Virus record (IMG/VR): IMGVR_UViG_3300022225_001767
Length of the DNA stretch: 64,000 nucleotides
Reading direction: 5' to 3' (one strand)
From: a virus
A model generated the notes under the pieces. It had not been told where the DNA came from. It worked only from the letters and a program-made list of their open reading frames with translations, and ran no database searches. The first letter of the stretch is position 1; every line of letters begins with the position of its first letter. Made by a program: the position numbers and the translations under genes. Shown here in pieces: positions 1 through 63,646 of the stretch.

Positions 1-439
1 CTGCCTCATACTCAAAAGCATGCAGTTCTTTTTCAAACTTGTAATGAAAGATGTCTGGATACATGTAAAGCATATCAAGTACGCCAACTTCTACACCTTG
101 TTCACGTACTACATTGACGCTTGCGTCATCATACTCACGATGGTGACGAAACAGAGAAACATTGAAGTATTGGACTTGGTAATGCGCAAACATTTCATTA
201 GTGTTGTGAAACCCCAACATGTCAGCGGCGAGCTTATCGGCTGCGCTTTGCTTTATGCTATCACGCGCTTTTTGGCCTACCGCACGCGCAACACTGTCAC
301 CCAGCGATTCCTTTTTAATGGTATGCTTAAATAGACCGACAACTTGCTCTAACGTCAGTGACGCTCGTAAACTTTCTCTTAACGCAGCTAGGTCTTTTTC
401 GTTTTGGATTACTTTTCTTAATGGTATTTCGTTTGACAT
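1..439 (-). CDS. Helical-motif family protein (unit A), runs off window start; paralog of 41804-42775
   Basis: Hand-translated, missing from ORF track: MSNEIPLRKVIQNEKDLAALRESLRAS...AADKLAADMLGFHNTNEMFAHY; GAGGA RBS; frame open to base 1. Confidence 0.85.
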   Translation of the reverse strand, partial: MSNEIPLRKVIQNEKDLAALRESLRASLTLEQVVGLFKHTIKKESLGDSVARAVGQKARDSIKQSAADKLAADMLGFHNTNEMFAHYQVQYFNVSLFRHHREYDDASVNVVREQGVEVGVLDMLYMYPDIFHYKFEKELHAFEYEA

Positions 440-449
440 GATATCATCC

Positions 450-594
450 TCTTGATAGCAGTGTGTTGTGCCCCGTTTCCATCACACTGCTTGACGATGT
501 AACGACAAACGGTGTCATAAAAAAAGTTGATGTAACTATTCATAGTGCGTTGCGCCAAGGGGCGGCGTGGTGCAAAACCACATCTCAAAGAGAC
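450..594 (-). ncRNA. Pseudoknotted leader RNA, unit A
   Basis: Two 5' hairpins; GCCCC (559-563) complementary to GGGGC (470-474) in loop GGAAACGGGGC of terminal stem 458-465/483-490. Confidence 0.7.
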
Positions 595-600
595 CGTTTT

Positions 601-629
601 ATATTAACCACATAACCAACATAAGTCAA
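601..629 (-). promoter_or_regulatory. sigma70-type promoter of unit A
   Basis: TTGACT-N17-TAATAT on minus strand. Confidence 0.65.
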
Positions 630-637
630 ATATTCTG

Positions 638-682
638 TTGACAATAAACACAGTTCTTGAGAGAATAACCTTGTCAACACAC
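638..682 (+). promoter_or_regulatory. Box-type promoter cassette (example)
   Basis: TTGACAataaacacagttcttgaGAGAATaaccttGTCAACAC then GGAG RBS. Confidence 0.8.
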
Positions 683-697
683 TCTTTGGAGATCCTT

Positions 698-1051
698 ATG
701 CCTAAAAACATCCCGATTACGGTAGATAAATTACGTGATGTTATTGAAAGTCAGCGCTGCCTTTATGGTGATGCGCCTGTTGTAGTCCGTCCGGAACCTG
801 CAAACCCTTTTTTTATCAAAGTGGCCAACCACTATATCCTTGATTGTCAGCGCGACGTCGATATGGCGGAAGACGGCATTACGCTGAAAACGCTATCAGA
901 GGCGCTTAAGGGCTTGCCGGGGCATGCTCGCGTTATGTCTGAAGATCGCATTCGCAACAATACTGAAATTGGTTTTTATTCCCCCGAAGAAGGTTTCGTG
1001 GCCACATTGATGGCGAATGAAATAGGGCGTAAGCGCATACAAGCCGCGTAG
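698..1051 (+). CDS. hypothetical protein
   Basis: ATG after cassette and GGAG RBS. Confidence 0.7.
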   Translation: MPKNIPITVDKLRDVIESQRCLYGDAPVVVRPEPANPFFIKVANHYILDCQRDVDMAEDGITLKTLSEALKGLPGHARVMSEDRIRNNTEIGFYSPEEGFVATLMANEIGRKRIQAA

Positions 1052-1150
1052 CCTAAATTTCACCTTCTCTCGCAGCAAGTTACCCTTGACGGTGAGTGCT
1101 TTTGCTGCGAGAATGGGTACGTCAACACAGCAACAGGAACCATTCTGTCA

Positions 1151-1795
1151 ATGAAATCACCTACGCCATTTTCGTGTAAAGATATTACACTTACACTATC
1201 GCCTATCACTTCTGATAACGATTCAGTTGTAGGTGATATGCCTAATCCAGAGCGCGTAAGCACATCGCGATTATGCATGACGTTTAGCGCTATGAATCAG
1301 TACGTCATGGACAATTATCTTTCTAGCGAAGAACGTGAAAATGAATTTGTAGTTCAGTTCAGCGCGCCCGCGACGGGTTACCATACCGACGGCTCGAATG
1401 AGACGTTTATTCGCAGCGTGATCACTTACATCACGGCATGTCAAACCGCCTTTGATCATGAGCAAGCATCACTCACCGTTGATAATCCTTCTCACGCACG
1501 TCAGTTTCTTGGTAACCACACACCTAACCATTACCAAGACGTCAGCAATGTTATGCTGGCTAAATTCATCGAACTTGTCAGCCCAGAACGCTCAACTTTT
1601 TCCACTAGTGAGCTCGACTTGATTGATGACTATCGACTTATTTGCTATCACACTATGAAGTGGTTGTATTGCGCGATTTCTGGCGATGACTTTACTACCA
1701 TGGTGGGTAACGATGGCAGCGTTTACGATGCCAGCAACGTGCCGCTTTTTGATTGTGTAGATGATGTTCTCGCTGTGCTACACAACCAACTTTAA
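1151..1795 (+). CDS. hypothetical protein
   Basis: 214-aa ORF, co-oriented with neighbours. Confidence 0.7.
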   Translation: MKSPTPFSCKDITLTLSPITSDNDSVVGDMPNPERVSTSRLCMTFSAMNQYVMDNYLSSEERENEFVVQFSAPATGYHTDGSNETFIRSVITYITACQTAFDHEQASLTVDNPSHARQFLGNHTPNHYQDVSNVMLAKFIELVSPERSTFSTSELDLIDDYRLICYHTMKWLYCAISGDDFTTMVGNDGSVYDASNVPLFDCVDDVLAVLHNQL

Positions 1796-1872
1796 CTCCC
1801 TAACCCACATTCTTTGTGTTGACTTGAACACTTACTTTTGAGATAATTAACATGTCAACACAACGAGGAAAT

Positions 1873-2355
1873 ATGATGTCTTTACTTAAAAGCAGTTCGG
1901 TAACACTTCATTTCTTACCAGCAAAGGCGATTAAACCCGGTCTAACCATTGCTATTGAAAACGACGATGGTTCCGTGGTTACAGGTGAGGTATCCAATGT
2001 GCACGTAGGCGGCGAGTCACCGGATTCGCCAACTGACTTTGCCATTCTCATCAATAACGATGAACACTTCAAGGTGATGGATGCGGATGACCCCGTTAAG
2101 CTTATTGTGCCGTATTTAGCAGGTGCTGACCTTACGATTTTGCAGCGGGCTGCGTTATCGTTACTCAACGACATCAATGTGGCGGGTGGACTTTATGAAC
2201 GTAACGGCAACTTTGATACGGTCGAAGGTTGGGACGAAGATGGATGGCCTGACCTTGCTGAGTCAGTAGTTCAAACCTACCATGCACTAAAGAACGAAGG
2301 CGTGATGGACGCTTGTCTTTTGATTACTGATGTTAGTGATGATGAAGACAACTAG
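1873..2355 (+). CDS. hypothetical acidic protein
   Basis: ATG after cassette and GAGG RBS. Confidence 0.75.
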   Translation: MMSLLKSSSVTLHFLPAKAIKPGLTIAIENDDGSVVTGEVSNVHVGGESPDSPTDFAILINNDEHFKVMDADDPVKLIVPYLAGADLTILQRAALSLLNDINVAGGLYERNGNFDTVEGWDEDGWPDLAESVVQTYHALKNEGVMDACLLITDVSDDEDN

Positions 2356-2442
2356 TTTATGAGGGCGGCGTAAAGTCGCCTATTGACAACCTACTCAAGT
2401 TTTGAGATACTTATTCCTGTCAACACAACACAGGAAAATGTT

Positions 2443-2646
2443 ATGTATCCAAATATTGTTACATTTGTGCCAGGCGTAGACAAAAAACCTGAAGGCCTAG
2501 GCAAATGCATCGGTTCTTTAGTGTATCGGATGTCATCAGGCACGGTAAAAGCTGCGGTGCACGTTGCGCCTAACGGCAACGAGGCGCTGGCACGAAAAGA
2601 GCTGGATGCCATTAATCTTAACAGTCAGCGCGCACAGATGCGCTGA
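2443..2646 (+). CDS. small hypothetical protein
   Basis: ATG after cassette and AGGA RBS. Confidence 0.65.
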   Translation: MYPNIVTFVPGVDKKPEGLGKCIGSLVYRMSSGTVKAAVHVAPNGNEALARKELDAINLNSQRAQMR

Positions 2647-2838
2647 TTGTTGTTGACAAGAGGCCATCTCATTGAGATAATGCCATCGTCAACACACGTA
2701 CATGTCGCACACTTTAGGCAACCGTAGATCATTATTCTACAACTTGCCACGCAAACAATCACTACGCTCATGCTGCGATAACTCGATTATACGTCGGGAT
2801 AAAGCTTGAGCTGAACAACGTATTTATTGGAGTCTATT

Positions 2839-3129
2839 ATGACACAGAAAGTTTCTAAAGCGATCCTAAACGTATCGCGTATCGACACGGCCATTAAAAA
2901 AGCCAAAGAGGTACTTGTTAAGCGCGCAAAGAAAAGCGGAATCACTGAGAACTTTGGACGGGCAGAAGTGGACGCTATTCGTGAGAAGTTTATCAACCCC
3001 TCTGATTTTAGTAATGATGAACTTAAGAAGCGTTCTCAGCTAACGGCGTTCTCTGATTGGGCAGCTTCGCTTAGTTTAGAAGACCTTGAAGATAAACCGG
3101 CAAGCAAACGGATTTCTATGTTTGACTAG
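2839..3129 (+). CDS. hypothetical protein
   Basis: GGAG RBS; about 150-nt leader after cassette at 2653. Confidence 0.75.
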   Translation: MTQKVSKAILNVSRIDTAIKKAKEVLVKRAKKSGITENFGRAEVDAIREKFINPSDFSNDELKKRSQLTAFSDWAASLSLEDLEDKPASKRISMFD

Positions 3130-3185
3130 AAGGCCTGGTATTATGGCGTTTCTTAATCTGGCGATTTCACTGTATTGGAGGGAGC

Positions 3186-3467
3186 GTGGCTGATAGCAAC
3201 CTCGATGGCGTTGTCGCCTTGTATAAGTCTGATATCAATGCGATAATTGATGCACTTGAGAAGGAGGTCTCACCCTCTCTTTTCATTAAGCTCTCGGGCT
3301 TCCTTATGCCTACGCTAAACGTTAACGTCATGGACGAAGAGGGTAACGCTCTCCCCTATCTTTGTGCCGTTTACGTACACAGATTGAATGGGTTTTACGC
3401 CACTCTCGCGTCCTCGGTTCCTTTGCGTACAAGACGAGCGCTACCCAGGATCCGACCCACTCAATAA
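3186..3467 (+). CDS. hypothetical protein
   Basis: GGAGG RBS, GTG start. Confidence 0.55.
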   Translation: MADSNLDGVVALYKSDINAIIDALEKEVSPSLFIKLSGFLMPTLNVNVMDEEGNALPYLCAVYVHRLNGFYATLASSVPLRTRRALPRIRPTQ

Positions 3468-3743
3468 CATAGAGGATTGCTCTTTTATTAGGCTGTGACG
3501 GAAGGCCGCACGCGCATCCCACGTCCCGTCATCTTCGAGCTCAGCCAGGCGCTCAGCAGCGTCTGGGTAAGTGCTCATGTTTTCTTTTGTTATTTCAAAC
3601 ACACTTATTGCCATGTGCTGCAATCTTGGCATCTCAGCCAATGGTGCATCGCAAATGATACGCGAGACAGCTTGCTTATCACCGCTATTTGAGGCTTTTG
3701 CCATCGCCACCATCCAATCCCATTCGGATTTAGATTGACTCAT
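3441..3743 (-). CDS. hypothetical protein
   Basis: AAGGG RBS, 100 aa. Confidence 0.65.
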   Translation of the reverse strand: MSQSKSEWDWMVAMAKASNSGDKQAVSRIICDAPLAEMPRLQHMAISVFEITKENMSTYPDAAERLAELEDDGTWDARAAFRHSLIKEQSSMLLSGSDPG

Positions 3744-4486: not shown

Positions 4487-4490
4487 AAGC

Positions 4491-7889: not shown

Positions 7890-7914
7890 AAAACCTGCCT
7901 AGCGCAGGTTTTTT
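7890..7914 (+). terminator. intrinsic terminator upstream of unit B
   Basis: AAAACCTGC-ctagc-GCAGGTTTTTT. Confidence 0.7.
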
Positions 7915-7949
7915 GTTGACTTTTTACGCCTATATGTTATCCTTTTTTT

Positions 7950-8149
7950 TGTGAGATGCACTTGCTTTGCATGTGTCAGTCATCTCATGGGGCAGCTCCC
8001 CTCTACGACCCACCCGCTCGCCGGGTTACGCATAAGCGTCACTGGAAAACCGCCAGCAACACCCTTGATTGACACCGGACATTATCATGGTGGCAAGGAG
8101 GAACGGGTCGGACTCTACCATGCCACAACATTGATAGGACGGTACCCTT
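7950..8149 (+). ncRNA. Pseudoknotted leader RNA, unit B
   Basis: TGAGATG/CATCTCA and GGGG/CCCC hairpins; CGACCC 8006-8011 pairs GGGTCG 8105-8110 in loop GGAACGGGTCG of stem 8090-8095/8121-8126; TTGACT promoter at 7916. Confidence 0.7.
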
Positions 8150-8821
8150 ATGCAAATTACATTTTCGCTTCGCAACAACAATCTTATTATCGACAGCTCA
8201 CAGAGCTTAGATGACTTTTCCGCCGCATTCGCTGACCTTACAAAGCTGAAAAAGACGCACGTCAAAAGTACGATAAGCAAAACCTTAGGTTTCAGCCATA
8301 TCAAGGCGCTTGAGAGCGCACTTACACCATACATTAGCGCCCCAGATGTTCGCCTTGCCGATAAAACGATAAAGGGGCTTCAAGATCTTTACTGGTGGCT
8401 TGATGATAACATCGACATGAACACTGAGATGTATTTTGATAGCAATGGTGAGGTTGACTCAAAAGCGTTGCAGGACATGTTATCGCCTTTGTTTGATATG
8501 ATGCGACAACAACAGGCATCAGGTAAACCTATCACGAACCGTGCAGAGGAAATCACCGCTAAGCGCGATGGTATACTTTCCGACATGACGAAACATGCCC
8601 TTCAGCATGCGGATGTCGACAACGAAGCGCAGCTAGAGCAAAAACATTATTACGCGGTTCAAGATGACGTTGAAGCACTCAACCGAAAATTATTTAACCA
8701 TGATGATTATGGGAAAGCCTTGGCGCTACTTGAACGTGAGGGCATGCAAGATTTTGCGAACCTTCTTGCCGAGATGACAGAAACGAAAACGGCAGAGGAT
8801 CACATCGCGCATACACTGTAG
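8150..8821 (+). CDS. Helical-motif family protein (unit B); paralog of 61637-62251
   Basis: KSTISKTLGFSHIKAL motif; IIDSSQSLDDFS matches IIDSKHSLDQFS. Confidence 0.8.
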   Translation: MQITFSLRNNNLIIDSSQSLDDFSAAFADLTKLKKTHVKSTISKTLGFSHIKALESALTPYISAPDVRLADKTIKGLQDLYWWLDDNIDMNTEMYFDSNGEVDSKALQDMLSPLFDMMRQQQASGKPITNRAEEITAKRDGILSDMTKHALQHADVDNEAQLEQKHYYAVQDDVEALNRKLFNHDDYGKALALLEREGMQDFANLLAEMTETKTAEDHIAHTL

Positions 8822-8844
8822 CACCATGCTCTCGCCAATCACTT

Positions 8845-8869
8845 AAAGCCCGTACATACGGGCTTTTTT
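8845..8869 (+). terminator. intrinsic terminator between units B and C
   Basis: AAAGCCCGTA-ca-TACGGGCTTTTTT. Confidence 0.75.
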
Positions 8870-8946
8870 ATTTTTGGTTATTTTCAATAAATGTATATTT
8901 TTTCTGATGGATATTGACATCACTCACAGGCGGTGAGATAATCACC

Positions 8947-9174
8947 ATACCTGCTCGACCCTACACTGCGGTGCGTGGTAACAGCAGAGGGAGGCTCCAG
9001 ACCTTCGTCGCATCTCAGGTGCAACAGTACACAATACCGTCGCACTCATGGCTAATACTGGCAACGTCTTCACTTAATAAAGACAACACACCCCTTTTTC
9101 GACATAACGTTACTTGACGAGTCGCAATTGGAACGAGATGCACAATGATGATTACGACTCACTTGGAGAATGAT
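8947..9174 (+). ncRNA. Pseudoknotted leader RNA, unit C
   Basis: GCATCTC 9010-9016 pairs GAGATGC 9135-9141 in loop GGAACGAGATGC of stem GAGTCG 9119-9124/CGACTC 9155-9160; promoter TTGACA-N17-GATAAT at 8914. Confidence 0.7.
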
Positions 9175-9825
9175 ATGTCTACACCTGTTACTATCTTGGG
9201 CGCTGATCGCGCCACGTTAATGAACAACACCCGACGCGCACTGGAAGGATTCCAAAAAGGACGTCCTGTTACGCGTGATGCATTGGTGAGAAAAGCGCTG
9301 GCCACCATCTTAGGGCAAGATAATGAGCACCTCCCTACCGCGGACTTCTCAATTAATAATGCCTCACTGGAGACACGCTTGCGTAACGCTATGGCGCCAC
9401 TTACGTTTTTGCAAGACTGGGGCACTGGGGATGACGAGTACCTTGATTTAAACTTTGAAGCGCGCGCGTGGGATGCCAATGCAGAGAAGGACGACATTAC
9501 CGTCGACTACCGCATCAGCTTCCATATTCCGGGTAAATACGCCTATTTCATTATCGGTAAAAATTATGGCAGTGGGATGGTCGGTGCCATTGAAATCCCG
9601 CTCTCACACCTACCTTACGCGCCGATGTTATTGCTTGAAGGCAGCCGTGATGCGCAGTGGCTTGACGAGTCAGAGATTTTTGTTGGCATCGAAAAGATGT
9701 TGGATGTTTACCATGCTATTTGCGCCGATCCATTGCTAAAAGAAGTTTTTATCGATAACCGCCCTGCACTTTCTCTTAAATCCGCGAAAGATGCAGTCAC
9801 AACATCGCACAGCGAGGTGCGTTGA
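9175..9825 (+). CDS. Helical-motif family protein (unit C)
   Basis: RKALATILGQDNEHL motif; GGAG RBS. Confidence 0.8.
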   Translation: MSTPVTILGADRATLMNNTRRALEGFQKGRPVTRDALVRKALATILGQDNEHLPTADFSINNASLETRLRNAMAPLTFLQDWGTGDDEYLDLNFEARAWDANAEKDDITVDYRISFHIPGKYAYFIIGKNYGSGMVGAIEIPLSHLPYAPMLLLEGSRDAQWLDESEIFVGIEKMLDVYHAICADPLLKEVFIDNRPALSLKSAKDAVTTSHSEVR

Positions 9826-13144: not shown

Positions 13145-13246
13145 CACGGCCAACTTTCACACTAATAAAACAAAGTTTTCTTGACAACATACACTGTTTT
13201 TGAGATACTAATTCTGCCAACACAACAGATAACAAAGGAAACATTT

Positions 13247-13831
13247 ATGGCCACTAAGGGCGTAAACAAAGTCATCCTTGTAGGTAATCTTGGGAACGAT
13301 CCTGAGGTTCGCTACATGCCTAACGGCAATGCCGTTGCCAACTTAAGTCTAGCAACAAGCGAAAGCTGGAAAGATCAGCAGGGTCAAGTTCAGGAACGCA
13401 CTGAATGGCACCGACTTACCATGTATCGCCGACTGGCTGAGATTGCTGGTGAATACCTGAAAAAAGGTTCACAAATTTACGTTGAAGGTAAACTTCAAAC
13501 GCGCAAATGGCAAGACCAGCAGGGTCAAGACAAGTACACTACTGAAATCATTGTCGATCAGATGCAAATGCTAGGCGGTCGCAATAACAATGGTGGCGGC
13601 AACCAAGGTGGTTACAACCAAGGCAATAACCAAAATCAAGGCGGTTACAACCAAGGCAACAACCAAAACCAAGGCGGCGGTAATCAAGGTGGTTACAACC
13701 AGAACCAAGGCGGCAATAATGGCGGTGGCAACCAAGGTGGCGGTAATCAAAATCAAGGCGGTCAGAACGCTGGTAAGAACCCACCTATGGCAGAACCAGA
13801 TTTTGACTTTGATGACGATATTCCTTTTTAG
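13247..13831 (+). CDS. ssb: single-stranded DNA-binding protein
   Basis: [21 protein letters not shown] fold, G/N/Q linker, C-terminal DDDIPF; start at MATKG. Confidence 0.97.
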
Positions 13832-18688: not shown

Positions 18689-18780
18689 GCTTCTTAAACC
18701 TCACAATATTTCGTTAACAAAAAGCGCCATTTTAGGCGTTTTTTTGTTGACTTTCATGTTCAATACTGCCAAAATGAAAA

Positions 18781-18965
18781 TGCTTCACAGTGATGTGCGG
18801 CAAACACAGGTGAGAACCTAGCAGCCTTCCGGCGCCATGCGCTTGCAAATATCATTAACGATGAACATTACGCTATCATTTAGCAATCCACGTTTACATT
18901 ATGAACTGTAGCGTGTCATCACCCCGGGAAGGCAAGAAAAAGACACGCAATACGGAGAATGATGT
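18781..18965 (+). ncRNA. Pseudoknotted leader RNA, unit D
   Basis: GCCTTCC 18824-18830 pairs GGAAGGC 18927-18933 in loop of stem GCGTGTC 18911-18917/GACACGC 18942-18948; TTGACT at 18747. Confidence 0.7.
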
Positions 18966-19778
18966 ATGAACACACCTAAGTTATTTTTTACCACGCTTGT
19001 TAATGCTCTGCGCACTAAAGATGATGCAAAGGCATTGCGTCAGCACATGAATGACGTGAACGCCAAGCACTTCGGAAACACCCAAAAACCCGCCAAATTG
19101 TTCGCTTATTTCGCTGACATGATGGGCACATCAAACGCAAACAAGCTATCAGCGTTACTTGATGAAAAAGTCAGCGACAATTTTGACGATCCTGCAACCT
19201 TCATCAGCACACTACTTAGCCCCATGATGTCGCGTGTTGCGCGTGTTGGCGAAGTGGGTAGAGTGATTTCAGGTAGCGACCCAGCCCCTAGCTGGTTTAT
19301 GAACCTTCCATTATTAACCATAAAAACGACGGGATACACCGACGATCCTGAAAAAACCACCTGCTATCTTGGCGTTATTATCAACGTTGAATACTCTAGG
19401 GCCTTCGGTAAACTTCTCGTTGATGCGACATTAAAACTGTTTGATGATGCTGATCTCTCTGCCTGTGATATTGGGTACGAAGTAGAACTTGAAACGCAAA
19501 ATGACATCACCGAATACTTTAGCAGCGAGATGGAAATGGGATTTGGTCAAGCGACAAGCATCTCACTTCATGAGGGCGGCAAATTATTCTCCTCGTTAAC
19601 TGGATTAACAACCTCTACGTTTGATGAAGGTGACGACCCCATTATTCCCTTTCTCGTCAGCGGGATTGGCCATGAGCTCATTCGAACATTGTCGCCGGTG
19701 TGCGATTTAACGTTAAATTGCGGTGACATCGCATGCCAACAGATGTTTTTAGCATCCGGTAAAATAGAAAAACGTTAA
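18966..19778 (+). CDS. Helical-motif family protein (unit D)
   Basis: LFAYFADMMGTSNANKLSALL motif; GGAG RBS. Confidence 0.78.
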   Translation: MNTPKLFFTTLVNALRTKDDAKALRQHMNDVNAKHFGNTQKPAKLFAYFADMMGTSNANKLSALLDEKVSDNFDDPATFISTLLSPMMSRVARVGEVGRVISGSDPAPSWFMNLPLLTIKTTGYTDDPEKTTCYLGVIINVEYSRAFGKLLVDATLKLFDDADLSACDIGYEVELETQNDITEYFSSEMEMGFGQATSISLHEGGKLFSSLTGLTTSTFDEGDDPIIPFLVSGIGHELIRTLSPVCDLTLNCGDIACQQMFLASGKIEKR

Positions 19779-20677: not shown

Positions 20678-20718
20678 ATAATAGTTGCATTGATGCCTGT
20701 ATTTTGTTAATATTTAAC

Positions 20719-20887
20719 TGTCGCCGCTAATAGCGACTGCCTCCTCCGCCCTAACGGGTAAGGCCCATATTAGCAAGTTACACCGACCTGATTTTTATTG
20801 AAACTACTGTCACCAGCGGTTCTCCAATAACAGGCGCAAGGGAGGAACGAGCTGTTAAACTGAACCGAAAACGGAAACAGTACAATC
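20719..20887 (+). ncRNA. Pseudoknotted leader RNA, unit E
   Basis: TCCTCC 20742-20747 pairs GGAGGA 20841-20846 in loop of nested stems CGGTTC/GAACCG and TAACAG/CTGTTA; TTGCAT-N17-TAATAT at 20685. Confidence 0.65.
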
Positions 20888-21817
20888 ATGAAATTCACTA
20901 CTTCATTTATCAATGCGGCCCTTACACGTCTACGTAACAGCATGACGCTTCATACCTCACGCGATCGTGTTTCCGCTGCCATTAAGCAGATGGCCTACAA
21001 AGCCAATGATGAGGACAAAACACAACTCGATACGCTACGCCATCAACTCGATACGCTTACGCTTGAAGATGCACCGATGGACAGAAAGCGCGCGCAAGAA
21101 ACATTGGCAACGATCCTTACCGGTCAGAATTATGCCCTTTTGAAGCGCGATGCAGATGCGCCACTCTCGCCCACGCACAATGATTTTAATGCGGCGAAGG
21201 GTATGTTGAACAACGCATTGAGCATGATCAATGATATGCAACATTATGAGCGAGAATCTGAACGCGCTTACAATAAGCTACTTAAATTGTTAACCGACAA
21301 TGCAGGTGATGCAGCTGCTGTAAAAGGAGATGCGCTTTCACCATGGACGAGCAATGCAGCCCTGTGCGCTTACTACCGCGACAAACTCATTGAACACAAA
21401 TCGTCGTTTAAATTCCGCATTAAAGACCTAGACGGCCCCATGTTTAGCCGTTCAGGCAGTGATGCCTATGAGGTTAAGGTTTCTTTCCTTTTTGGTGGCC
21501 ACAGCATCAATGTTCTTTGGGAAGTTAAAAACAATGAGTATGCTGAGTTTGACGATGAGTTTGTTTCTGTTGAACTTGATGGCGACGACATTGAATCTGT
21601 CACATCCAGTGAACCGTGCAACAATGGGCATTATGTTTTTGACTTATTCAACGACATAATGTCAGATTACTTACGCGACAACGTTCGGTTAGGTGACGAT
21701 GACGTGTGCTCTCCTGATGAAGCATCACGTGACGCCGAGAGGGAACTCGCTTTGCAAGCGTTGACAATGGGTCACCGTTGGTTCGAGAAGCAAAAAAAGA
21801 GAGAAAAACACTCGTGA
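20888..21817 (+). CDS. Helical-motif family protein (unit E)
   Basis: RAQETLATILTGQNYALLK motif. Confidence 0.78.
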   Translation: MKFTTSFINAALTRLRNSMTLHTSRDRVSAAIKQMAYKANDEDKTQLDTLRHQLDTLTLEDAPMDRKRAQETLATILTGQNYALLKRDADAPLSPTHNDFNAAKGMLNNALSMINDMQHYERESERAYNKLLKLLTDNAGDAAAVKGDALSPWTSNAALCAYYRDKLIEHKSSFKFRIKDLDGPMFSRSGSDAYEVKVSFLFGGHSINVLWEVKNNEYAEFDDEFVSVELDGDDIESVTSSEPCNNGHYVFDLFNDIMSDYLRDNVRLGDDDVCSPDEASRDAERELALQALTMGHRWFEKQKKREKHS

Positions 21818-25585: not shown

Positions 25586-25945
25586 ATGACGCAAAAAACA
25601 AGCTACATCAAAACCCAGCTGTCACGCCTAGAAAACAAAAACAGCGATGGCCTTAAACCTTCTGTTCAACTGTATGGAGCCGTATCCGGCAAGACGAACC
25701 AACTTAGCGTTTCGCCAACGCAACTTGATGCCATCTCAACCGTGTTAATGATGGACGATTCAGGCGATGAAGCAAGCGCCTCAGCGCAAGAAAATGTGGG
25801 CAACGCCATTGCACAAATGCTTGGACTAAAGACAGGTGCTGATGGCCGCTATGTTACCAACCGTGGGGCCAAAACCGCACGTGGGTTGGGCGCAACCGTA
25901 CTGCAAACGATGGCGGAATCATTAAAATCTACCGCCGAGTCCTAA
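25586..25945 (+). CDS. hypothetical protein
   Basis: AAGGA RBS; terminator follows. Confidence 0.72.
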   Translation: MTQKTSYIKTQLSRLENKNSDGLKPSVQLYGAVSGKTNQLSVSPTQLDAISTVLMMDDSGDEASASAQENVGNAIAQMLGLKTGADGRYVTNRGAKTARGLGATVLQTMAESLKSTAES

Positions 25946-26039
25946 TTAATAATCAATCAACAACACAGAAGCGAGTTTCCCCCGCCATAACCTCGCTTCT
26001 TTTTTATTGACATTTTAATCAATACTGGTATTATTAACA

Positions 26040-26238
26040 CAAGTTTCGAGAGCGTTACGACGCTATGACCGAAATGTGTGTTGCAGCACACGCCGCCTAC
26101 CGCCCTTTGGGTGTTTGTTTTATACAGACCGGCCACTCTTGCACCATTGAATGCACACTTACGTTTATAATCGTTTACCGCGTGAGGCTTCAAGGTTAAT
26201 TGGTAGGGCTTGAACATTCACATTCGGAGAACGCTATT
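26040..26238 (+). ncRNA. Pseudoknotted leader RNA, unit F
   Basis: CCTACC 26096-26101 pairs GGTAGG 26202-26207 in loop of TTCAAG/CTTGAA stem; two 5' hairpins; TTGACA at 26007. Confidence 0.68.
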
Positions 26239-26865
26239 ATGAGCAACCCATTACGCCACCTTGCCACCGCCATTGTTACTGCTTGTCAAACTAAAGACAA
26301 CGCAAAACACGTCAAACAGAGCACCGTCCTTGATGTTCTTACTAAGCATGAAGGCTACAGAAGTATACAGGCGCGAGACAACGCAACTGCTACGCGTAAC
26401 GATGACAAACCACTGCCATCGGACGTTGTCGCATTGCGAGGGCTTCTTTACGCCAACTATCCACATTCTGACTTACTTCCCATAGAACTTGGTGAAGCCA
26501 TCACATTTAAAGGCTCCCTCGTTTCGCACCCTGATTGGGGATGCGATGCACCCTTCGCCGTCATGTGGGATTTACTCAGTAATGAACTACATGCAGCGGT
26601 CGATGAGCTTGAGCGCTGGAACCGCTTGTGCGACCGCCTTGAAGACGTTATTGAGTCTGGCACTGACGCTATAAACGAAGTGTTGATTGCTTTCCCACCA
26701 CGTATTGCGCAGTTTCTTCACGCAGAGTTTGATGAAGTGACCGACGACACCATGTTGCCTGTTAAACAGGCTGCGGAGAAATATCGCGCCCTAGAGCGCT
26801 TTCAATCTGATGTTGAGAGTGTCACGGATGCGCTTCGCAATGCCCGTTCGGCACAAGACAGATAA
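26239..26865 (+). CDS. Helical-motif family protein (unit F)
   Basis: VKQSTVLDVLTKHEGYRSIQA motif; GGAG RBS. Confidence 0.78.
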   Translation: MSNPLRHLATAIVTACQTKDNAKHVKQSTVLDVLTKHEGYRSIQARDNATATRNDDKPLPSDVVALRGLLYANYPHSDLLPIELGEAITFKGSLVSHPDWGCDAPFAVMWDLLSNELHAAVDELERWNRLCDRLEDVIESGTDAINEVLIAFPPRIAQFLHAEFDEVTDDTMLPVKQAAEKYRALERFQSDVESVTDALRNARSAQDR

Positions 26866-41606: not shown

Positions 41607-41641
41607 GTTGACTCTAGTTTGTTCGTTTGATATATTTAAGT

Positions 41642-41803
41642 TGCTCCGATGGAGTGTAGGCCATACGACCTACGCCGCCCCTTTGGCCAAAATCGTAAGC
41701 AACATCTTTACCTATTCACCTGTGGTACGTTACATACAACGACATAACACCTTGGGTGCGATTGGGAACGGGGCACAAGCGCACCATTAATGAGGAATAC
41801 CTT
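41642..41803 (+). ncRNA. Pseudoknotted leader RNA, unit G
   Basis: GCCCC 41677-41681 pairs GGGGC 41770-41774 in loop GGAACGGGGCA of stem GGTGCG/CGCACC; TTGACT at 41608. Confidence 0.72.
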
Positions 41804-42775
41804 ATGTCATTACGTCAACAGATCGTGTCTAAATCACACATGCAGGGGCTACGAGACTCACTGCGAGAATCATTCTCCCCGAATAAGCTTGCTGTCCTGC
41901 TATCACACACCATTAATGATCCTGCTGTCCAGGCTGCAATGAGCAAAGCCATCGGTTCAAAAGGCGAGAGCAAGCTCGACGTGCGCGTCGCCGACGACAT
42001 CACAGCCACCCTGCTTGGCTTTAATAACACCCATGAAATGTTCGCGCATTACAATAGTGTGACGCATGTTCGTCGCTGGGAGTTTTTACACAAAAACAAA
42101 CACGAAGACTATGCACCCGACTATTTGGTTGAAGTTGGCGTCCACTTTTCTGTACTTGATGCCATCGCCCTAGAGGACAACGATTTCGAACATGATCGCA
42201 TTGATGAACGTTTTGAGCTCCTTGCTATGGATGAGGCCTACCCTGCCAGTGATGAAGATCTCGCAACCTGCATCACGTCAAAAAGCGATGCGCCTGCGGT
42301 TGTGTTATCGATGTCAAGAGATGGCCTGTTTGATGACATTAAAATGTCAGACAGCGCAATGGCGTCACAGGCATTCACCTTGCTCGAATCAATGATTTTA
42401 ACCACAAGCGCCGGCATCCCCTTTGCACTGGATAGCGACGAGGTAATGAAACGCTACACGCTCTCTGATATGGCGATATTCTCGGTTTCCCAGGATGTCG
42501 TTGATAGCGAGCTAGACCTCCTGACCGTCTTTCTTGAAGAGGGGGTGCTGGAGGGGACAATCACCGTTCCACTACCAGCCGCATTGCTACCACTCGCGCC
42601 ACTTTCAATCAGAGACGGCATGCATATCTATACGTTACTGGATGGGTACACACTGCATTTTTCTCCGGCATCGATGATGTTCATCTTGGCGCACAACGAC
42701 GCACCCTGCTTTGGCGGCGGCATACACCTCCATGAGGACGACCTTCGACGTCAGGCATTTACTGGCTTGGCGTGA
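41804..42775 (+). CDS. Helical-motif family protein (unit G)
   Basis: VADDITATLLGFNNTHEMFAHY; paralog of 1-439; GAGGA RBS. Confidence 0.8.
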   Translation: MSLRQQIVSKSHMQGLRDSLRESFSPNKLAVLLSHTINDPAVQAAMSKAIGSKGESKLDVRVADDITATLLGFNNTHEMFAHYNSVTHVRRWEFLHKNKHEDYAPDYLVEVGVHFSVLDAIALEDNDFEHDRIDERFELLAMDEAYPASDEDLATCITSKSDAPAVVLSMSRDGLFDDIKMSDSAMASQAFTLLESMILTTSAGIPFALDSDEVMKRYTLSDMAIFSVSQDVVDSELDLLTVFLEEGVLEGTITVPLPAALLPLAPLSIRDGMHIYTLLDGYTLHFSPASMMFILAHNDAPCFGGGIHLHEDDLRRQAFTGLA

Positions 42776-44166
42776 ACTACCCAGCGACATCGCTTCGCTC
42801 TGATCACTGGGCTTCTACAGTCTAGCTTTGAAGCTAGGCCGCTTCTTTTTTCTCAGATCCAACAGCAAACTTCGATAGCTCGAAGGCTTTCGCTTTACTA
42901 GCTGATTTCTGCTGAGATATGGGGATTACCCTTGCGACGATCCCAGCCGCAATTAAGTCTGTCTCACCTGTTTTTGCTATGCTTTTAGCCGCTGAGAAGT
43001 CGCGGTTTTGATACGTTCCGCAAGCAGTACAGGTGAAATATCTATCGCTCAATGTTAAAACATGGCGTTGGCCGCATTCTGAACAAATCCCTGTGGATTT
43101 TTCAAAGCGACCAATTTCGTGATAGAGCTTACCTTCCAACTCAGCCTTGTATTTCGAGAGCTGGGTAATTAAGCCCATCACATTGTCAGCCACCATACTG
43201 CCGTTGAACTTTTGCATCGCTTTCACATTCAAATCCTCAAACACCAGAATATCAGTTTCATTGGCTATCTGTCGTGACACTTGATGTGCAAAGTCGAGTC
43301 TTTGCCGTGAGATTTTGCCGTGAAGCTTATTGATGCGTTGCTTGGTCTTTTGCCAGCGATTAGACCCTTTCTTTCGCCTTGCAAGCTGGCGTTGCAAGTG
43401 GCTTAATTTCTCTTTTGATTGTTTTAAGAACTTCGGGTTGTTGGCAGTAAAGCCATTTGAGCCCACTACCGTTTGCTTAGAGTTAATATCAAAACCTGTG
43501 ATGCTTTCCAGTAGTTTTTTAGCGGCTTTACATTCCACTTCTTGCGTAATGCTGCATTCCCATTTTCCATGACGATACTGGACAGTAACGGTCTTAATTT
43601 GGCTCACTAAGTCGCGGTGTAAGATGATGGGTATTTTACCCACTTTTGGGATGCTAATAGAGTCATTTTCAATGCGTATGCAATTGGAATTGTTCACCGC
43701 TCGAAAGCTGTCATTGTGAAGCTTCTTTCGCTTATAAGAGACTTTATGTTTTGGAAAACGTTGCAACCGACCTTTTGAAAAGGCGTTTTTTAGTGCTGTT
43801 TCCAGATCTCTTGCGACTTGCTGGGCTGCTGCTGAGTCAAACGCCTTTACCCAAGCAAACTCATCAAAAGACTTTAGTTCTTTGAGCAATGAAGCCATAT
43901 CCCTGTAAAACAAGAACGTCTTATCGTACTCGTATCGACGCATTGTTTCAGACAACAGCAGGTTCCAAATGCCACGGGCTGTTGCACCAAACTCAATGAG
44001 TCTAGCCTCCTGCTCCAGCGTTGGCTTAAGCCTGTAATTGTATCTGAGCGTCTTTTTCATATACTGTATAGATTACTGTATATAGTAGAGCTGTCAACCT
44101 GAATTTACCGATTCATCCCCGCGACATCACTTCGTTCTGATCACGGGGTTTTCTCGGCAACATTAG
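42772..44166 (-). mobile_element. IS200/IS605-family tnpB-only element
   Basis: Related subterminal hairpins at about 42780-42812 and 44116-44148; right end TTCAC; TTTAT target 5' of left end; no tnpA. Confidence 0.85.
42834..44060 (-). CDS. tnpB: RNA-guided endonuclease TnpB
   Basis: N-terminal YRLKPT helix-turn-helix-type segment, RuvC GFDIN / VFEDLNV / RD, Zn finger CSECG...CTACG. Confidence 0.93.
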   Translation of the reverse strand: MKKTLRYNYRLKPTLEQEARLIEFGATARGIWNLLLSETMRRYEYDKTFLFYRDMASLLKELKSFDEFAWVKAFDSAAAQQVARDLETALKNAFSKGRLQRFPKHKVSYKRKKLHNDSFRAVNNSNCIRIENDSISIPKVGKIPIILHRDLVSQIKTVTVQYRHGKWECSITQEVECKAAKKLLESITGFDINSKQTVVGSNGFTANNPKFLKQSKEKLSHLQRQLARRKKGSNRWQKTKQRINKLHGKISRQRLDFAHQVSRQIANETDILVFEDLNVKAMQKFNGSMVADNVMGLITQLSKYKAELEGKLYHEIGRFEKSTGICSECGQRHVLTLSDRYFTCTACGTYQNRDFSAAKSIAKTGETDLIAAGIVARVIPISQQKSASKAKAFELSKFAVGSEKKEAA

Positions 44167-45940: not shown

Positions 45941-46121
45941 CTGATGCGTCAACCATCAGTATTGAACTTAAAGTCCCGGCACCTGTTGTTTTGTTGACGT
46001 AAAACGCCTTCGCCGGGCACCCTTTACGTCGGCGGCCTGTTGTGTTGACGCCTTCTCGCCGCCGACCCTCACATTGTTGTGACGACAACGCCCGTACCAG
46101 GTTATGCTGGCGGGCTTTTTT
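45941..46121 (+). ncRNA. candidate antisense sRNA against the GTCAACACAAC leader box
   Basis: GC stems 45975-45980/46012-46017 and 46028-46036/46058-46066 enclose CCTGTTG(TTT)TGTTGACG; U-tract terminator 46090-46121. Confidence 0.6.
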
Positions 46122-60279: not shown

Positions 60280-60385
60280 GGTGCACTTTCGCCACTTCTC
60301 ACTTTTAGGTACGTTGCACGAAACGGCAGCCTGTTATGACACGCTGCCAACATCACCACGTTATAATCACCAACAAGGACACACT

Positions 60386-61105
60386 ATGCGTACGTCATTT
60401 GTCACCTTGCTGTTTTCTGTCTTTCTGTCTACATCGGCTTTCGCTGTTGATGTCGTAAAGAAAAGCAGTAGCGGTATTTGCCACGACACCAGCAGCAGCT
60501 GGTATGAAAAAACGAAGAACTTCACAGCCTATGCCACCATGGAGGCCTGTATTGATTCTGGTGGACGCGCACCGCGCAATTACACCGGCACCAAACCGAA
60601 AGACAACCTGCCGCAAGGCGAACGCTATGATCGCGACGCATGGGAACACTGGGTGGATGACGATAATGATTGTCAGAACACGCGCGCTGAGGTCTTGATT
60701 GCTCACTCAACGACCCCCGTTCTTTACAATAACATTATCAAACGATGTTATGTGACACGGGGGAAGTGGTATGGCGTCTACTCCGGCAAATTCTATTATG
60801 ACGACGACGATCTTGATATTGACCACATTGTGCCCCTTGCTTATGCGCATGCGCACGGTGGTGATAAATGGAGCGCCGCTCAAAAGCGTGCTTTTGCCAA
60901 CGATATGGACAACCTTCTCCCTGTTAGCGCATCATTAAACAGGCAGAAATCGGCAAAAGGGCCGACTGATTGGATGCCGCCCTATCAACCTTACCGCTGT
61001 GAGTATTTGGGTGAGTTTGACGGCATTATGAAAAAGTACTCCCTTGAGTATTTCCCTCACGAACTGCGCGTTATCAACAAAATGAAAAGCGCCTGCGGTA
61101 TGTAA
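60386..61105 (+). CDS. secreted HNH-family endonuclease (DUF1524-like)
   Basis: Signal peptide; YDRDAWEHW, CQNTRAEVL, LDIDHIVPL, NLLPVSASLNRQKS. Confidence 0.85.
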   Translation: MRTSFVTLLFSVFLSTSAFAVDVVKKSSSGICHDTSSSWYEKTKNFTAYATMEACIDSGGRAPRNYTGTKPKDNLPQGERYDRDAWEHWVDDDNDCQNTRAEVLIAHSTTPVLYNNIIKRCYVTRGKWYGVYSGKFYYDDDDLDIDHIVPLAYAHAHGGDKWSAAQKRAFANDMDNLLPVSASLNRQKSAKGPTDWMPPYQPYRCEYLGEFDGIMKKYSLEYFPHELRVINKMKSACGM

Positions 61106-61131
61106 ACACCAAGACGTTTATTGCATGTACT

Positions 61132-61159
61132 AAAAAAGCGCCTCATTTGGCGCTTTTTT
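61132..61159. terminator. bidirectional intrinsic terminator
   Basis: AAAAAAGCGCC-tcattt-GGCGCTTTTTT. Confidence 0.75.
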
Positions 61160-61180
61160 GATTTGTGACCCTTATCGGCA

Positions 61181-61561
61181 TTAGCACAGCAGGTCGACAA
61201 CAACGGCCAATCGCCGCTTCTGTTCATTTAATGCTTCCGCAAGAGTAACCAGTTCATCGTCGGCATCCGCCATTTGAGCCAGCATTACGATGCGCTTTGT
61301 GTGCTCTGCAATACTATGCGACAATTCCGACTTCATTGTTTCGAGGTCGGCCTTTGATGGTGTAGACGCATTAACCTTTGAAGTGAGCGCCTGCATATCA
61401 ACACCTTTTAACGTTCTGCCGATATGAATGTTACCCGACAGTGGGTTTAAGGCATTGCTAAAATAGAAACCATGCTTATTCTTTCTGAGCGTTAAATGCA
61501 TGGCTTTTTCTTTTGTGATAAGCGCACTTAAATGCACTTGTGTTACCGTGACTTCAGACAT
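61181..61561 (-). CDS. hypothetical protein
   Basis: AAGGAG RBS. Confidence 0.7.
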   Translation of the reverse strand: MSEVTVTQVHLSALITKEKAMHLTLRKNKHGFYFSNALNPLSGNIHIGRTLKGVDMQALTSKVNASTPSKADLETMKSELSHSIAEHTKRIVMLAQMADADDELVTLAEALNEQKRRLAVVVDLLC

Positions 61562-61636
61562 TGCTTTTCTCCTTGGTGGTGAAGTTAAATTATACCACCA
61601 TATGACCTATTTTCCAATTGCTTTTGCCCTTCTTAT

Positions 61637-62251
61637 TTAGCGCGACGTTAATACGTCATACTCTAAACTGTTCCTCACAATACTGCCCATGATCTCAGCA
61701 ACATCAACCAGGCCTTGCTGCTCAAGTGTCACCAGGGCTTCTTTTAACAAGGGGTGGTTGGCCAGCTCTCGCGCATCATCACTTAACGCCTCTGCGGTAG
61801 ACTCGTGCGCGTCAGCGGGCACATCGCTCATATCATCCACTTGCTGTGCGTCCAATATGTTTGATGACACTTGTGATTTCCACATATTTATTTTTTGCTC
61901 GCATGCTTTCAATGCATCATTTGGCGCATCTTCATCGCTATGCTTCTGTTGAAATACATGCGCTTTAGGGGGGAGGGCGGCCAGCACGTCTGACGCCCTA
62001 ACCTCGTGTGTATCGTCAAGTAACGCCCCCGCTTTCGCTTGGATTTTTAGCCAGTTGTACAGGCCATCAATAGCCGCAGAGGGAGCAATCACCGGTGCCG
62101 GTGTTAATTGATTGGTTAGTATCGCAATATCAGCACAGTTTTGCCCTTTTGCGATGGCGCTTCGCAGTCGCGTGGCGGGCATCTTCGTGTGCTGCGCAGT
62201 GTCTTTTGAAAATTGGTCGAGTGAATGTTTGCTATCAATAATAATAAACAC
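61637..62251 (-). CDS. Helical-motif family protein (unit H); paralog of 8150-8821
   Basis: IIDSKHSLDQFS...RLRSAIAKGQNCADIAIL; GLYNWL; EALVTLEQQGL. Confidence 0.8.
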   Translation of the reverse strand: MFIIIDSKHSLDQFSKDTAQHTKMPATRLRSAIAKGQNCADIAILTNQLTPAPVIAPSAAIDGLYNWLKIQAKAGALLDDTHEVRASDVLAALPPKAHVFQQKHSDEDAPNDALKACEQKINMWKSQVSSNILDAQQVDDMSDVPADAHESTAEALSDDARELANHPLLKEALVTLEQQGLVDVAEIMGSIVRNSLEYDVLTSR

Positions 62252-62467
62252 AATAATATCCTCTTTGTCGTCGGTATAAGGTGATGAGTTCGGCCATTGC
62301 CCAACAACCGACTAAAAAGTCATATTGTGGTTGATGCAAATAGTGGTTGATGCAGTTTACCTTACTCAGGCAGACCATAAGACAGGTCGGCGAGTGGCCG
62401 TAGAGGGATGCCGTCCCAAGCACCGGCTTATCAGATGCATAACATGCAAATGGGCAGCGCTATGGTG
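62252..62467 (-). ncRNA. Pseudoknotted leader RNA, unit H
   Basis: CGGCCA (62395-62400) pairs UGGCCG (62291-62296) in loop of stem GUCGGU/ACCGAC; TTGACA-N17-TATTAT with -35 at 62494-62499. Confidence 0.7.
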
Positions 62468-62507
62468 AAAATAATATCAACATCAACCTGTGCTGTCAAC
62501 ATAAAGC

Positions 62508-62536
62508 AAAAGGGCTGCAAGCGCAGCCCTTTTTTT
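62508..62536. terminator. intrinsic terminator between units I and H
   Basis: AAAAGGGCTGC-aagc-GCAGCCCTTTTTTT. Confidence 0.72.
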
Positions 62537-62545
62537 GATCACCCA

Positions 62546-63316
62546 CTAACTCGAAAGCGTAACTAAAAAACATCCTTCTGGAATATCATCACGTGGTACC
62601 ACAGCAAGGCCTGATGTCGTTTGGATGTCATGAAAACAAGCCAAAAACCCAGTCTTATTACGCAGCGTTTCCATAACATCTTCGCTGCTTCCATCGAAAC
62701 CAACAGGGACATGAATGGCGACGACAGAGTAAACGCCCTGAATGCGGTCGATCACATGCTCTTCAAATTGGTCAATAGCGCCGATGTTTACTTTATCTGC
62801 ACCCATAAGTGTGGTTGAACTTGCATCTGGCATCACCCACTCTTCATTGGTGTTTTCATTAATATAAAGCGTAAAGCGCTTCGTATCACTCGTTTCAATA
62901 ATATCTTGCATGGCGTATTCTGCCATGCAGTGAACGGTTACATCACCCAATAAACTCTGCTTGAATTGCTGTTCGCCATTCGGGAAGCCGATAAGTTTTA
63001 AGGTAATATCGCGGAGGCGGTCTCGCCCTTTACTTTTATCCGTATTTATCGTGATATCGAGTGTGTCAGCAAGGATGCGCTTGACGTGCTCCTCAGTGAC
63101 ACAAAGTGACGCTTCGTCTTTTACCTCTGCCATAGGGTTGTTGACATAAGTGTTAACTTCACCTTTTACGACAGGGTACGCCAAGCATGAGCAAAGGGGG
63201 CATTCGCAGGTTGTGAAAGACTGACCGCTATCGAAGCGCTCACTTGCACGTCTTACAGCATTAAATTCGCTTTCATTTTGCGTAAAGTTACAGTTATCGC
63301 AGCGATAATACATCAT
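62546..63316 (-). CDS. Helical-motif family protein with N-terminal Zn-ribbon (unit I)
   Basis: GAGGA RBS before MMYYRCDNC...CPLC; RLRDITLKLIGFPNGEQQF motif. Confidence 0.78.
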   Translation of the reverse strand: MMYYRCDNCNFTQNESEFNAVRRASERFDSGQSFTTCECPLCSCLAYPVVKGEVNTYVNNPMAEVKDEASLCVTEEHVKRILADTLDITINTDKSKGRDRLRDITLKLIGFPNGEQQFKQSLLGDVTVHCMAEYAMQDIIETSDTKRFTLYINENTNEEWVMPDASSTTLMGADKVNIGAIDQFEEHVIDRIQGVYSVVAIHVPVGFDGSSEDVMETLRNKTGFLACFHDIQTTSGLAVVPRDDIPEGCFLVTLSS

Positions 63317-63515
63317 CGTATTCCTCATAGTATGACAGGTTGCGTCTACGTTCCTCAACTTGTCACGTATCGTGAACAAGTATGATGTTTTTTGCGTCAT
63401 CGTAAATGGATGTTTGCGTTGCGTTATCAGCACTGCGTTATGCAGTTGTAGACGAGCCAAGGCCGCCGCCTCACATACACCACCATCAACCAATTGGTGT
63501 GGCGTCATACGTGTT
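63317..63515 (-). ncRNA. Pseudoknotted leader RNA, unit I
   Basis: CGUCUAC (63448-63454) pairs GUAGACG (63343-63349) in loop GGAACGUAGACG of stem UGACA-GUUG/CAAC-UGUCA; TTGACA-N17-GATAAT with -35 at 63545-63550. Confidence 0.72.
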
Positions 63516-63646
63516 AAGCCTATTATCCATAAATCTTGGAGTGTTGTCAATGGGTTTATTTTTAATAAGGTTTTCTTTTTATGCTTGACAACGCACTCAG
63601 AGTTTGAGATACTACATCTGTCAACACAACAACTCAGGACGCCATT

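Follow-up and report, generated by a model that had tools for sequence, protein, structure and literature searches.

Nine pseudoknotted 5' leaders, possibly feedback operators, preceding orphan genes of a very large marine plasmid-like element

The 64,000 nt of DNA of IMG/VR record IMGVR_UViG_3300022225_001767, referred to here as the window, is part of a very large uncultured marine plasmid-like element, in which nine dispersed genes each follow a long stretch that carries no gene. These nine stretches are best explained as untranslated 5' leaders, each belonging to an mRNA that in most cases carries a single gene, and they are of an RNA design that is uncatalogued in Rfam. The fold that they share, with its long-range pseudoknot, is almost certainly real, and each leader very probably controls, in cis and at a post-transcriptional level, how its own gene is expressed. 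With a probability of roughly 0.3–0.4, the folded domain would be a translational operator beside the ribosome-binding site that is read by a protein, likeliest the product of the same unit, giving feedback control. They are best read as a new family of pseudoknotted leaders that work in cis on the transcript, possibly as feedback operators.

The nine units, lettered A to I, had been proposed in a first-pass annotation, and all are present at the sites given there, each being composed of a near-consensus σ70 promoter, a non-coding leader, and a gene (Table 1). The promoters have TTGACx or TTGCAT, a spacer of 16–17 nt, and TAnnnT or GATAAT, with promoter scan scores of 9/12 for unit B and 11/12 for unit C. 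There is usually a terminator upstream, and the gene usually stands alone. Counted from the end of the -10 box, the leaders are 161–232 nt long. Elsewhere in the window, around 45 promoters follow one conserved design, in which TTGACAAC is followed by an operator-like inverted repeat, by GAGATACT, and, after six bases, by GTCAACACAAC, with which a leader of about 20 nt opens. This set of standard promoters fits control by one repressor together with a common 5' tag on the transcripts. The nine units are transcription units without the GTCAACAC tag of the standard short leaders, and the operator governing the remaining genes is absent from seven of their nine promoters; units C and I, and the orthologue of D in the related locus L010, have a standard-type promoter but no tag.

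Table 1. Promoters, leaders, and genes of the nine units, with other features of the window (X and X', pairing strands; P2 and P3, hairpins)
Feature	Position	Strand	Remarks
Unit A promoter	601..629	-	TTGACT, 17 nt spacer, TAATAT
Unit A leader	440..600	-	X GCCCC 559-563 in GCC/GGC hairpin loop; P3 459-489; X' GGGGC 470-474 after GGAAAC
Gene A	2..439	-	A/G family; open reading frame runs off the window
Unit B promoter	7916..7943	+	Preceded by terminator 7890-7912
Unit B leader	7944..8149	+	X CGACCC 8006-8011; P2 CCCG-CTCGC-CGGG; P3 8086-8122; X' GGGTCG 8105-8110 after GGAAC
Gene B	8150..8821	+	B/H family; terminator 8845-8866
Unit C promoter	8914..8942	+	11/12 match; operator-like CTCACAG..GTGAGA as in standard promoters
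Unit C leader	8943..9174	+	X GCATCTC 9010-9016; P3 9119-9160; X' GAGATGC 9135-9141
Gene C	9175..9825	+	C/K family
Unit D promoter	18747..18775	+	
Unit D leader	18776..18965	+	X GCCTTCC 18824-18830; P3 18911-18948; X' GGAAGGC 18927-18933
Gene D	18966..19778	+	D/F family
Unit E promoter	20685..20713	+	TTGCAT, 17 nt spacer, TAATAT
Unit E leader	20714..20887	+	X TCCTCC 20742-20747; P2 GCCC-TAAC-GGGT; P3 20828-20857; X' GGAGGA 20841-20846
Gene E	20888..21817	+	
Unit F promoter	26007..26034	+	
Unit F leader	26035..26238	+	X CCTACC 26096-26101; P2 GCCC-TTT-GGGT; P3 26189-26214 plus outer GTGAG/TTCAC stem; X' GGTAGG 26202-26207
Gene F	26239..26865	+	D/F family
Unit G promoter	41608..41636	+	
Unit G leader	41637..41803	+	X GCCCC 41677-41681; P3 41755-41785; X' GGGGC 41770-41774 after GGGAAC
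Gene G	41804..42775	+	A/G family
Unit H promoter	62471..62499	-	
Unit H leader	62252..62470	-	X CGGCCA 62395-62400; P3 62270-62312; X' TGGCCG 62291-62296; paralogue of the B leader
Gene H	61637..62251	-	B/H family
Unit I promoter	63522..63550	-	Resembles standard promoter
Unit I leader	63317..63521	-	X CGTCTAC 63448-63454; P2 ACTGC-ATAAC-GCAGT; P3 63332-63366; X' GTAGACG 63343-63349 after GGAAC
Gene I	62546..63316	-	N-terminal CxxC..CxxC zinc ribbon
TnpB/IS605 OrfB, intact	42834-44060	-	Directly after unit G; DNA 81% identical to Pseudoalteromonas plasmids
Standard promoter examples	2419, 16150, 28978, 47189, 58172	+	Inverted repeat, e.g. CTCTCAG..TGAGA, then GATACT

In all nine leaders, one or two 5' hairpins (P1a and P1b) begin within a few bases of the predicted transcript start. 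The strand X, of 5–8 nt, lies 2–5 nt after P1b, which is a hairpin of 4–6 bp, and 0–2 nt before another small hairpin, P2. Between P2 and the last hairpin there is a middle tract of 60–75 nt that is G-poor, weakly structured, and the least conserved part of the leader. The last hairpin is P3, the foot of which is 1–25 nt upstream of an exposed Shine-Dalgarno sequence. The loop of P3 is 14–33 nt long and the complement of X, designated X', begins 7–11 nt into it, at a distance of 89–125 nt from X and 33–47 nt upstream of the start codon. Pairing of X with X' makes a long-range pseudoknot that encloses a domain of about 100 nt.

Every X/X' pair that had been listed for these leaders occurs exactly once in its own leader. 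The claim of a single architecture is borne out as a shared design but not as a uniform one, since the X of units A and G is in the loop of a 3-bp hairpin and unit H has no adjacent P2. Similarly, GGAAC or GGAAAC does directly precede X' in units A, B, C, G, and I, and CGTT(T)AC does lie upstream of P3 in units A, C, D, F, and G, but neither motif is kept in all orthologues. A pairing between GGAAC and CGTTAC was considered and found to be inconsistent. Mimicry of CRISPR repeats by P2, an RNA anti-CRISPR idea assessed by eye, was also rejected, as the P2 sequences differ between units.

Complements of 5–7 nt and loose hairpin designs are common at random, which is what would be expected if these were ordinary intergenic hairpins with coincidental short complements. 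The longest random match between a 30-nt window and the shuffled upstream leader averages 5.6 nt, placing the X/X' complement alone at the level of chance, and a loose hairpin-plus-complement descriptor has about 850 matches on one strand. It is position and covariation that carry the signal. When the 10 nt 5' of P2 are compared with the P3 loop of the same unit, the matches are 5, 6, 7, 7, 6, 6, 5, 4, and 7 nt, the 4 nt match being that of unit H, while the non-self mean is 3.4 nt. The loop of its own unit is a better match for each X than the loop of any other. For the seven independent units, the true assignment of X to loop is the unique best of 5040 permutations. A strict descriptor, in which the complement has 6 nt or more, X is followed immediately by P2, and P3 lies 8–32 nt before a start codon bearing a Shine-Dalgarno sequence, matches six of the nine units and 16 of 239 other candidate starts. 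The permutation result and this enrichment argue against coincidence, as do the compensatory changes seen in independent orthologues, which come from five or more other samples, and the covariation counts given below refute it, leaving it a probability close to nil.

Diverged relatives of the units were retrieved by way of their proteins. Homologues of protein I, at 39–71% identity, were found in four other samples, and their leaders keep the whole fold. The X:X' helix is CGTCTAC/GTAGACG in the window and in locus L018, TGTGTGC/GCACGCA with one G-U pair in L020, and CGCATAC/GTATGCG in L021. In the alignment of these four leaders there are 38 pairs, 98.7% of the cells are paired, and 19 of the 38 pairs are changed on both sides. 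None of 500 shuffles reaches the observed covariation, and partners slid along the alignment are 22–46% paired. The 7-bp pseudoknot helix itself is 100% paired, with four of its seven pairs changed on both sides. The fifth I-family homologue, L022, has GTATGC/GCATAC; this was read directly and stands outside the covariation count, because its loop is misaligned by MAFFT.

In the D family, comparison with the L010 orthologue shows 27 of 27 pairs kept and three compensatory changes, one of which is in the pseudoknot, where GCCTTCC/GGAAGGC has become GCTTTCC/GGAAAGC. The paralogous leaders of B and H differ by two compensatory pair changes in X:X'. A third leader of the A/G type, in L010 (E 1.9e-11 with covariance model R2), has GCCCTC/GAGGGC against the GCCCC/GGGGC of A and G, and homologues of the C leader in L015 and L017 retain X:X' with changed stems. 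Related to C is a further unit, K, at the loci L015–L017, which has an 8-bp pair, CTTGCTCC/GGAGCAAG. In total there are 18 leaders with 11 different X:X' helices and a constant geometry. The covariation of X and X' claimed at first pass is genuine, with compensatory changes in orthologues of both the I and the D families. For a long-range pseudoknot such covariation is unusually clear, the tertiary pairing being included in it.

The loci L015–L017 have a different backbone, with methyltransferases, a PIN protein, and an integrase, and promoters with another operator palindrome. Together with L021 they make up a second element lineage, with the promoter palindrome AACAACA-N4-TGTTGTT, in which the leader design is kept before C-like, K, and I-like genes. 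There may be a further unit at L021:2435-2624, before a gene of 231 amino acids, where there is CACGCCGCCCCGCAC and a P3 of CGGCA..TGCCG with a loop, GTGCGG, complementary to CCGCAC.

At the sequence level the nine leaders are several sub-families with one common design, because the covariance models of the G type (R1 and R2) find only the leader of A, at E 1.8e-5 and 2.5e-6, and, weakly, the 5' module of unit E (R2, E 0.22). The leaders of B, C, D, F, H, and I are not found by these models, and a MAFFT alignment of all nine 3' modules is not meaningful. The leaders had not been recognised at first pass as a named RNA family, and the Rfam check agrees with this: no leader has a match in Rfam 15 at the gathering score, and of five weak matches obtained at E up to 5 none is in a leader.

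Metatranscriptome contigs begin 12–30 nt past the predicted transcript starts of units B, C, D, and F and continue into the coding sequence. That of unit B starts at 7978, with strain variants in the P2 loop and the middle segment, while those of units D and F cover 18798-19687 and 26055-26646. In one RNA run there is a relative that differs over 25914-26041, where 739 other letters stand in place of the 126 nt that lead up to the predicted start of the unit F transcript, similarity returning at 26041. This junction suggests that leader and gene together may form a module with its own boundary.

The leaders very probably act as sense-strand RNA, not as DNA or as protein. G-U pairs are frequent in the sense-strand helices. 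A coding function is excluded because indels break the frames and there is no leader open reading frame that is common to the units or kept in the orthologues; in the case of unit I, a longer in-frame open reading frame of the gene reaches 63550 but is not conserved, and its leader is therefore non-coding. The leaders are more conserved than the coding sequences that follow them, with 87% mean column identity in the alignment of the F leader with that in L010 against 48% protein identity, and the same holds for D and G. Within families this conservation extends over loops and linkers as well as stems, while between families it is only the design that is conserved. The middle tract is depleted in G in all nine leaders (15% against 22.5% for the window, with C/G ratios of 1.3–2.3) and has a C content of 25%, which is the background level; such a tract is compatible with a plain spacer, with ribosome standby, or with the loading of Rho.

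Neither a Pfam family, even at E 10, nor a PHROGs family matches any of the nine proteins, and a protein atlas search gave no usable relatives. A Glyoxalase_8-like label for these proteins is not supported as it stands. They fall into the families A/G/G2, B/H, C/K, D/F (weak), E, and I, and the one cognate domain that had been envisaged for them is not statistically established: when the families are compared profile to profile, no probability exceeds 1.7%. The best of these comparisons, with P 0.028, aligns an LGxxN helix motif of A/G with that of C/K, a hint at most of a common element, and a loose hh-LG-x-x-N-x-x-x-h motif can be picked out by eye in most unit proteins, including those newly fetched. 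It is the N-terminal parts of the proteins that are conserved; in the I-family homologues conservation is limited to the first 120 or so residues, and residues 1–53 of protein I are a CxxC..CxxC zinc-ribbon N-terminus that is also present in many short proteins of the representative library. The leader sub-families track the protein families (A/G/G2, B/H, C/K, I), and leader and gene stay together across elements that have different backbones and different standard promoters.

In the mechanism proposed here, the pseudoknotted leader would be read by a protein. The likeliest reader is the product of the unit itself, by way of the conserved part at its N-terminus, and its binding would give feedback on translation of its own gene. 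The units would need such control because most have strong promoters without the operator and the 5' tag. A protein-read operator is favoured because unpaired bases are conserved in a family-specific manner, because leader and N-terminal part stay together across backbones, and because the units are monocistronic, with seven of nine promoters lacking the operator of the other genes. A more ambitious and rather doubtful version is that each unit is a self-contained RNA-protein feedback cassette, in which the N-terminal part, helical or in I a zinc ribbon, would bind its own leader, with the X:X' helix and the family loops as identity elements preventing cross-talk among nine or more paralogous cassettes. 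If true, the fast-evolving early genes of giant plasmids would be under post-transcriptional control by a modular system that duplicates.

Several observations weigh against a leader read by the unit's own protein. A shared RNA-binding domain is not established by the Pfam, PHROGs, and hhalign comparisons described above, and the AlphaFold model of protein G, with a predicted local distance difference test score (pLDDT) of 39, is unusable. Whole units may simply have been duplicated, which would by itself keep leader and gene together, and bases that are conserved though unpaired could be needed for the tertiary fold instead of for a partner. The minimum free energies of the leaders are only mildly below those of shuffles (z -0.3 to -2.6). 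The Shine-Dalgarno sequence is unsequestered in every predicted fold, and for this reason no simple on/off switch is visible. The RNA evidence is weak, being in the form of contigs, which give neither true 5' ends nor expression levels and in which uncovered parts are uninformative.

The leaders might instead work without any factor, the 5' hairpins and the pseudoknot domain blocking 5'-end-dependent decay, offering a platform or standby site, and giving constitutively high expression, either as a stabiliser of the ompA type or as an activating pseudoknot like that of the I-complex plasmids without the antisense layer. This is unlikely, but not strikingly so: the hairpins start near the predicted transcript start in 9/9 leaders, the Shine-Dalgarno sequence is open, strong promoters and terminators precede the units, and neither an antisense promoter in a pattern scan, nor a conserved leader peptide, nor a trans partner within the window came to light. 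A stabiliser would, however, have no need of a conserved long-range pseudoknot, or of loops and linkers conserved family by family, and with Shine-Dalgarno sequences that are already good an activator seems unnecessary. Somewhat more doubtful is a Rho-dependent attenuator or anti-attenuator, in which the middle tract would be the Rho loading site and the pseudoknot would gate loading before the ribosome arrives. Untranslated leaders of 160–230 nt are natural Rho targets, and those of the units have a middle tract that is G-depleted in 9/9 cases, poorly structured, and least conserved. Yet any unstructured spacer would also be G-poor, the tract is not enriched in C, and the RNA contigs span both leader and gene. 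Control by CsrA/RsmA was considered and rejected, GGA being present in seven of nine P3 loops but absent from those of F and H and lost in the I-family leaders of L020 and L022.

That the leaders are riboswitches, or sensors of a small molecule, an ion, or temperature, is very improbable. In favour of such a sensor is a conserved multi-helix pseudoknotted fold in a 5' untranslated region by the ribosome-binding site, but there is no nucleotide core across the sub-families, the models of one type missing the others. Neither Shine-Dalgarno sequestration nor a terminator is there to serve as an expression platform in the predicted folds, and the downstream genes encode orphan proteins rather than transporters or enzymes, with no Rfam match for the leaders. 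We give equally little credence to the leader RNA being itself the product, as a processed trans-acting RNA, a ribonucleoprotein scaffold, or an antitoxin like those of type III systems, even though the leader is better conserved than the protein and its pseudoknot strands are unit-specific and address-like. In type III systems such as ToxIN, tandem repeats of antitoxin RNA are found upstream of an endoribonuclease toxin. The resemblance to type III toxin-antitoxin RNA raised in the first-pass annotation does not hold, there being no tandem repeats in or near the leaders and no family for the proteins. Leader and coding sequence are contiguous in the RNA contigs without a terminator between them, and complementary targets within the window are at the level of chance only. 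Least probable of these is a role as folded single-stranded DNA during transfer, as a single-strand promoter or priming site of a leading region in the manner of Frpo/ssi. The context does resemble a leading region, as small genes are lined up in one direction over long arrays and a PcfJ-like gene is present, but the -35 and -10 boxes lie outside the fold in ordinary consensus promoters of the duplex type. Moreover, many sense-strand pairs are G-U, each of which would leave an A-C mismatch in the template strand, and three of the units (A, H, and I) lie on the minus strand of the window, the others on the plus strand.

The window is a unidirectional array of about 120 small open reading frames with a G+C content of 44–49%, in which there is no tRNA and for which there is no Rfam match. 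The few recognisable genes encode a PcfJ-like protein, TnpB/IS605, a trypsin-like peptidase, and a GmrSD_C/HNH protein. Close relatives are found in marine metagenomes only, on contigs of up to 234 and 447 kb. A search of a phage collection with the window gave no match, in a plasmid collection the TnpB segment alone matches, and the element was not found in isolate genome, phage, or plasmid records. The similarity of TnpB to Pseudoalteromonas plasmids is the only clue to the host lineage and may be no more than a hint. A pattern scan of species-representative genomes for the standard promoter gave chance matches only, and a Paraglaciecola contig proved not to be a relative.

Some further features were noted in the course of this work. 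At 45975-46121 (+) there is a gene-free stretch with two GC-rich hairpins, the loops of which, CTGTTGTTTTGTTGAC and CTGTTGTGTTGAC, complement the shared mRNA tag, and a terminator follows; this is a candidate anti-tag small RNA. A 33-nt tandem repeat, AACCAAGGCGG..., is present in about 3.4 copies at 13600-13735 (+), within the open reading frame 13181-13831, where a relative in an RNA run has a 15-nt deletion and a 3-nt insertion. Behind standard promoters at L004:6843-7266 and L004:13484-13902 are two long intergenic stretches, both with tRNA-like sequences, GGGGAGAAGCTCAG...TTCGAGTCC..., another conserved structured segment on the 5' side, and a hairpin-plus-terminator with GTGCTGACAC on the 3' side.

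Pseudoknotted leaders that regulate in cis are of a known kind; the present ones have no Rfam counterpart and very good compensatory support. Their deployment is unusual, with nine or more copies per replicon, private pairing sequences, and genes that are orphans and evolve fast. The proteins vary more than the leaders, which recur in related giant marine elements with different backbones. The nine units are a second expression class beside the tag-and-small-RNA regulon of the element, and X, X', and the compensatory pairs offer a mutable handle on the timing and dosing of early genes and on the roles of the orphan proteins.

In the Frpo and ssi sequences of F and ColIb-P9, which are single-strand promoters in leading regions, the boxes are rebuilt inside a long imperfect hairpin of the transferred strand. 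These are structured non-coding stretches of 200–300 nt before leading-region genes, which the leaders of the units resemble, but in the units the promoter boxes are outside the fold and the pairing favours the sense strand. Autoregulatory pseudoknot operators, which with the rep leaders of the I-complex plasmids are the closest working analogues, are found in E. coli rpsO, for S15, in rpmI-rplT, where the pseudoknot for L20 is long-range, and in the T4 gene 32 leader. In these, as here, the 5' leader has a pseudoknot next to the ribosome-binding site, which in the L20 operator is likewise a long-range loop pairing. The leader is read in those cases by the product of the gene, whereas binding by the product is only proposed for the units, which in addition encode orphan proteins without a recognised RNA-binding fold and are present in many copies on a mobile replicon.

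The repressor Reg576 of plasmid p576 is an example of the control of establishment genes in conjugative plasmids (PMC6294495). The likeness to the element is in the arrays of small early-type genes on a transferable element, with promoters of their own and a shared control layer. The layer of p576 and that of the GTCAACAC tag act on promoters or on a shared 5' tag, while each of the nine units has a private structured leader and no tag.

The rep leaders of the I-complex plasmids, ColIb-P9 repZ and pMU720 repBA, also contain a pseudoknot, and its pairing matters for the initiation of translation (PMC8053102, citing Asano and Mizobuchi 1998, Praszkier and Pittard 2002). As in the units, a hairpin loop in a plasmid mRNA leader pairs with a strand some 100 nt away near the ribosome-binding site. 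The distal strand abuts the Shine-Dalgarno sequence in the I-complex, whereas the loop strand X' is set further back from the start codon here, and the translated leader peptide that is required there has no equivalent in the form of a conserved leader open reading frame. In the I-complex a cis-encoded antisense RNA competes for the loop, but no antisense promoter scoring at least 9/12 was found in the nine leaders by a pattern scan, which a weak promoter may escape. The I-complex genes are Rep genes, while none of the proteins here has a Pfam family and no replication initiator was found among them. Unlike the I-complex pseudoknot, the design described here is repeated on one replicon, in nine or more copies that differ in their pairing sequences.

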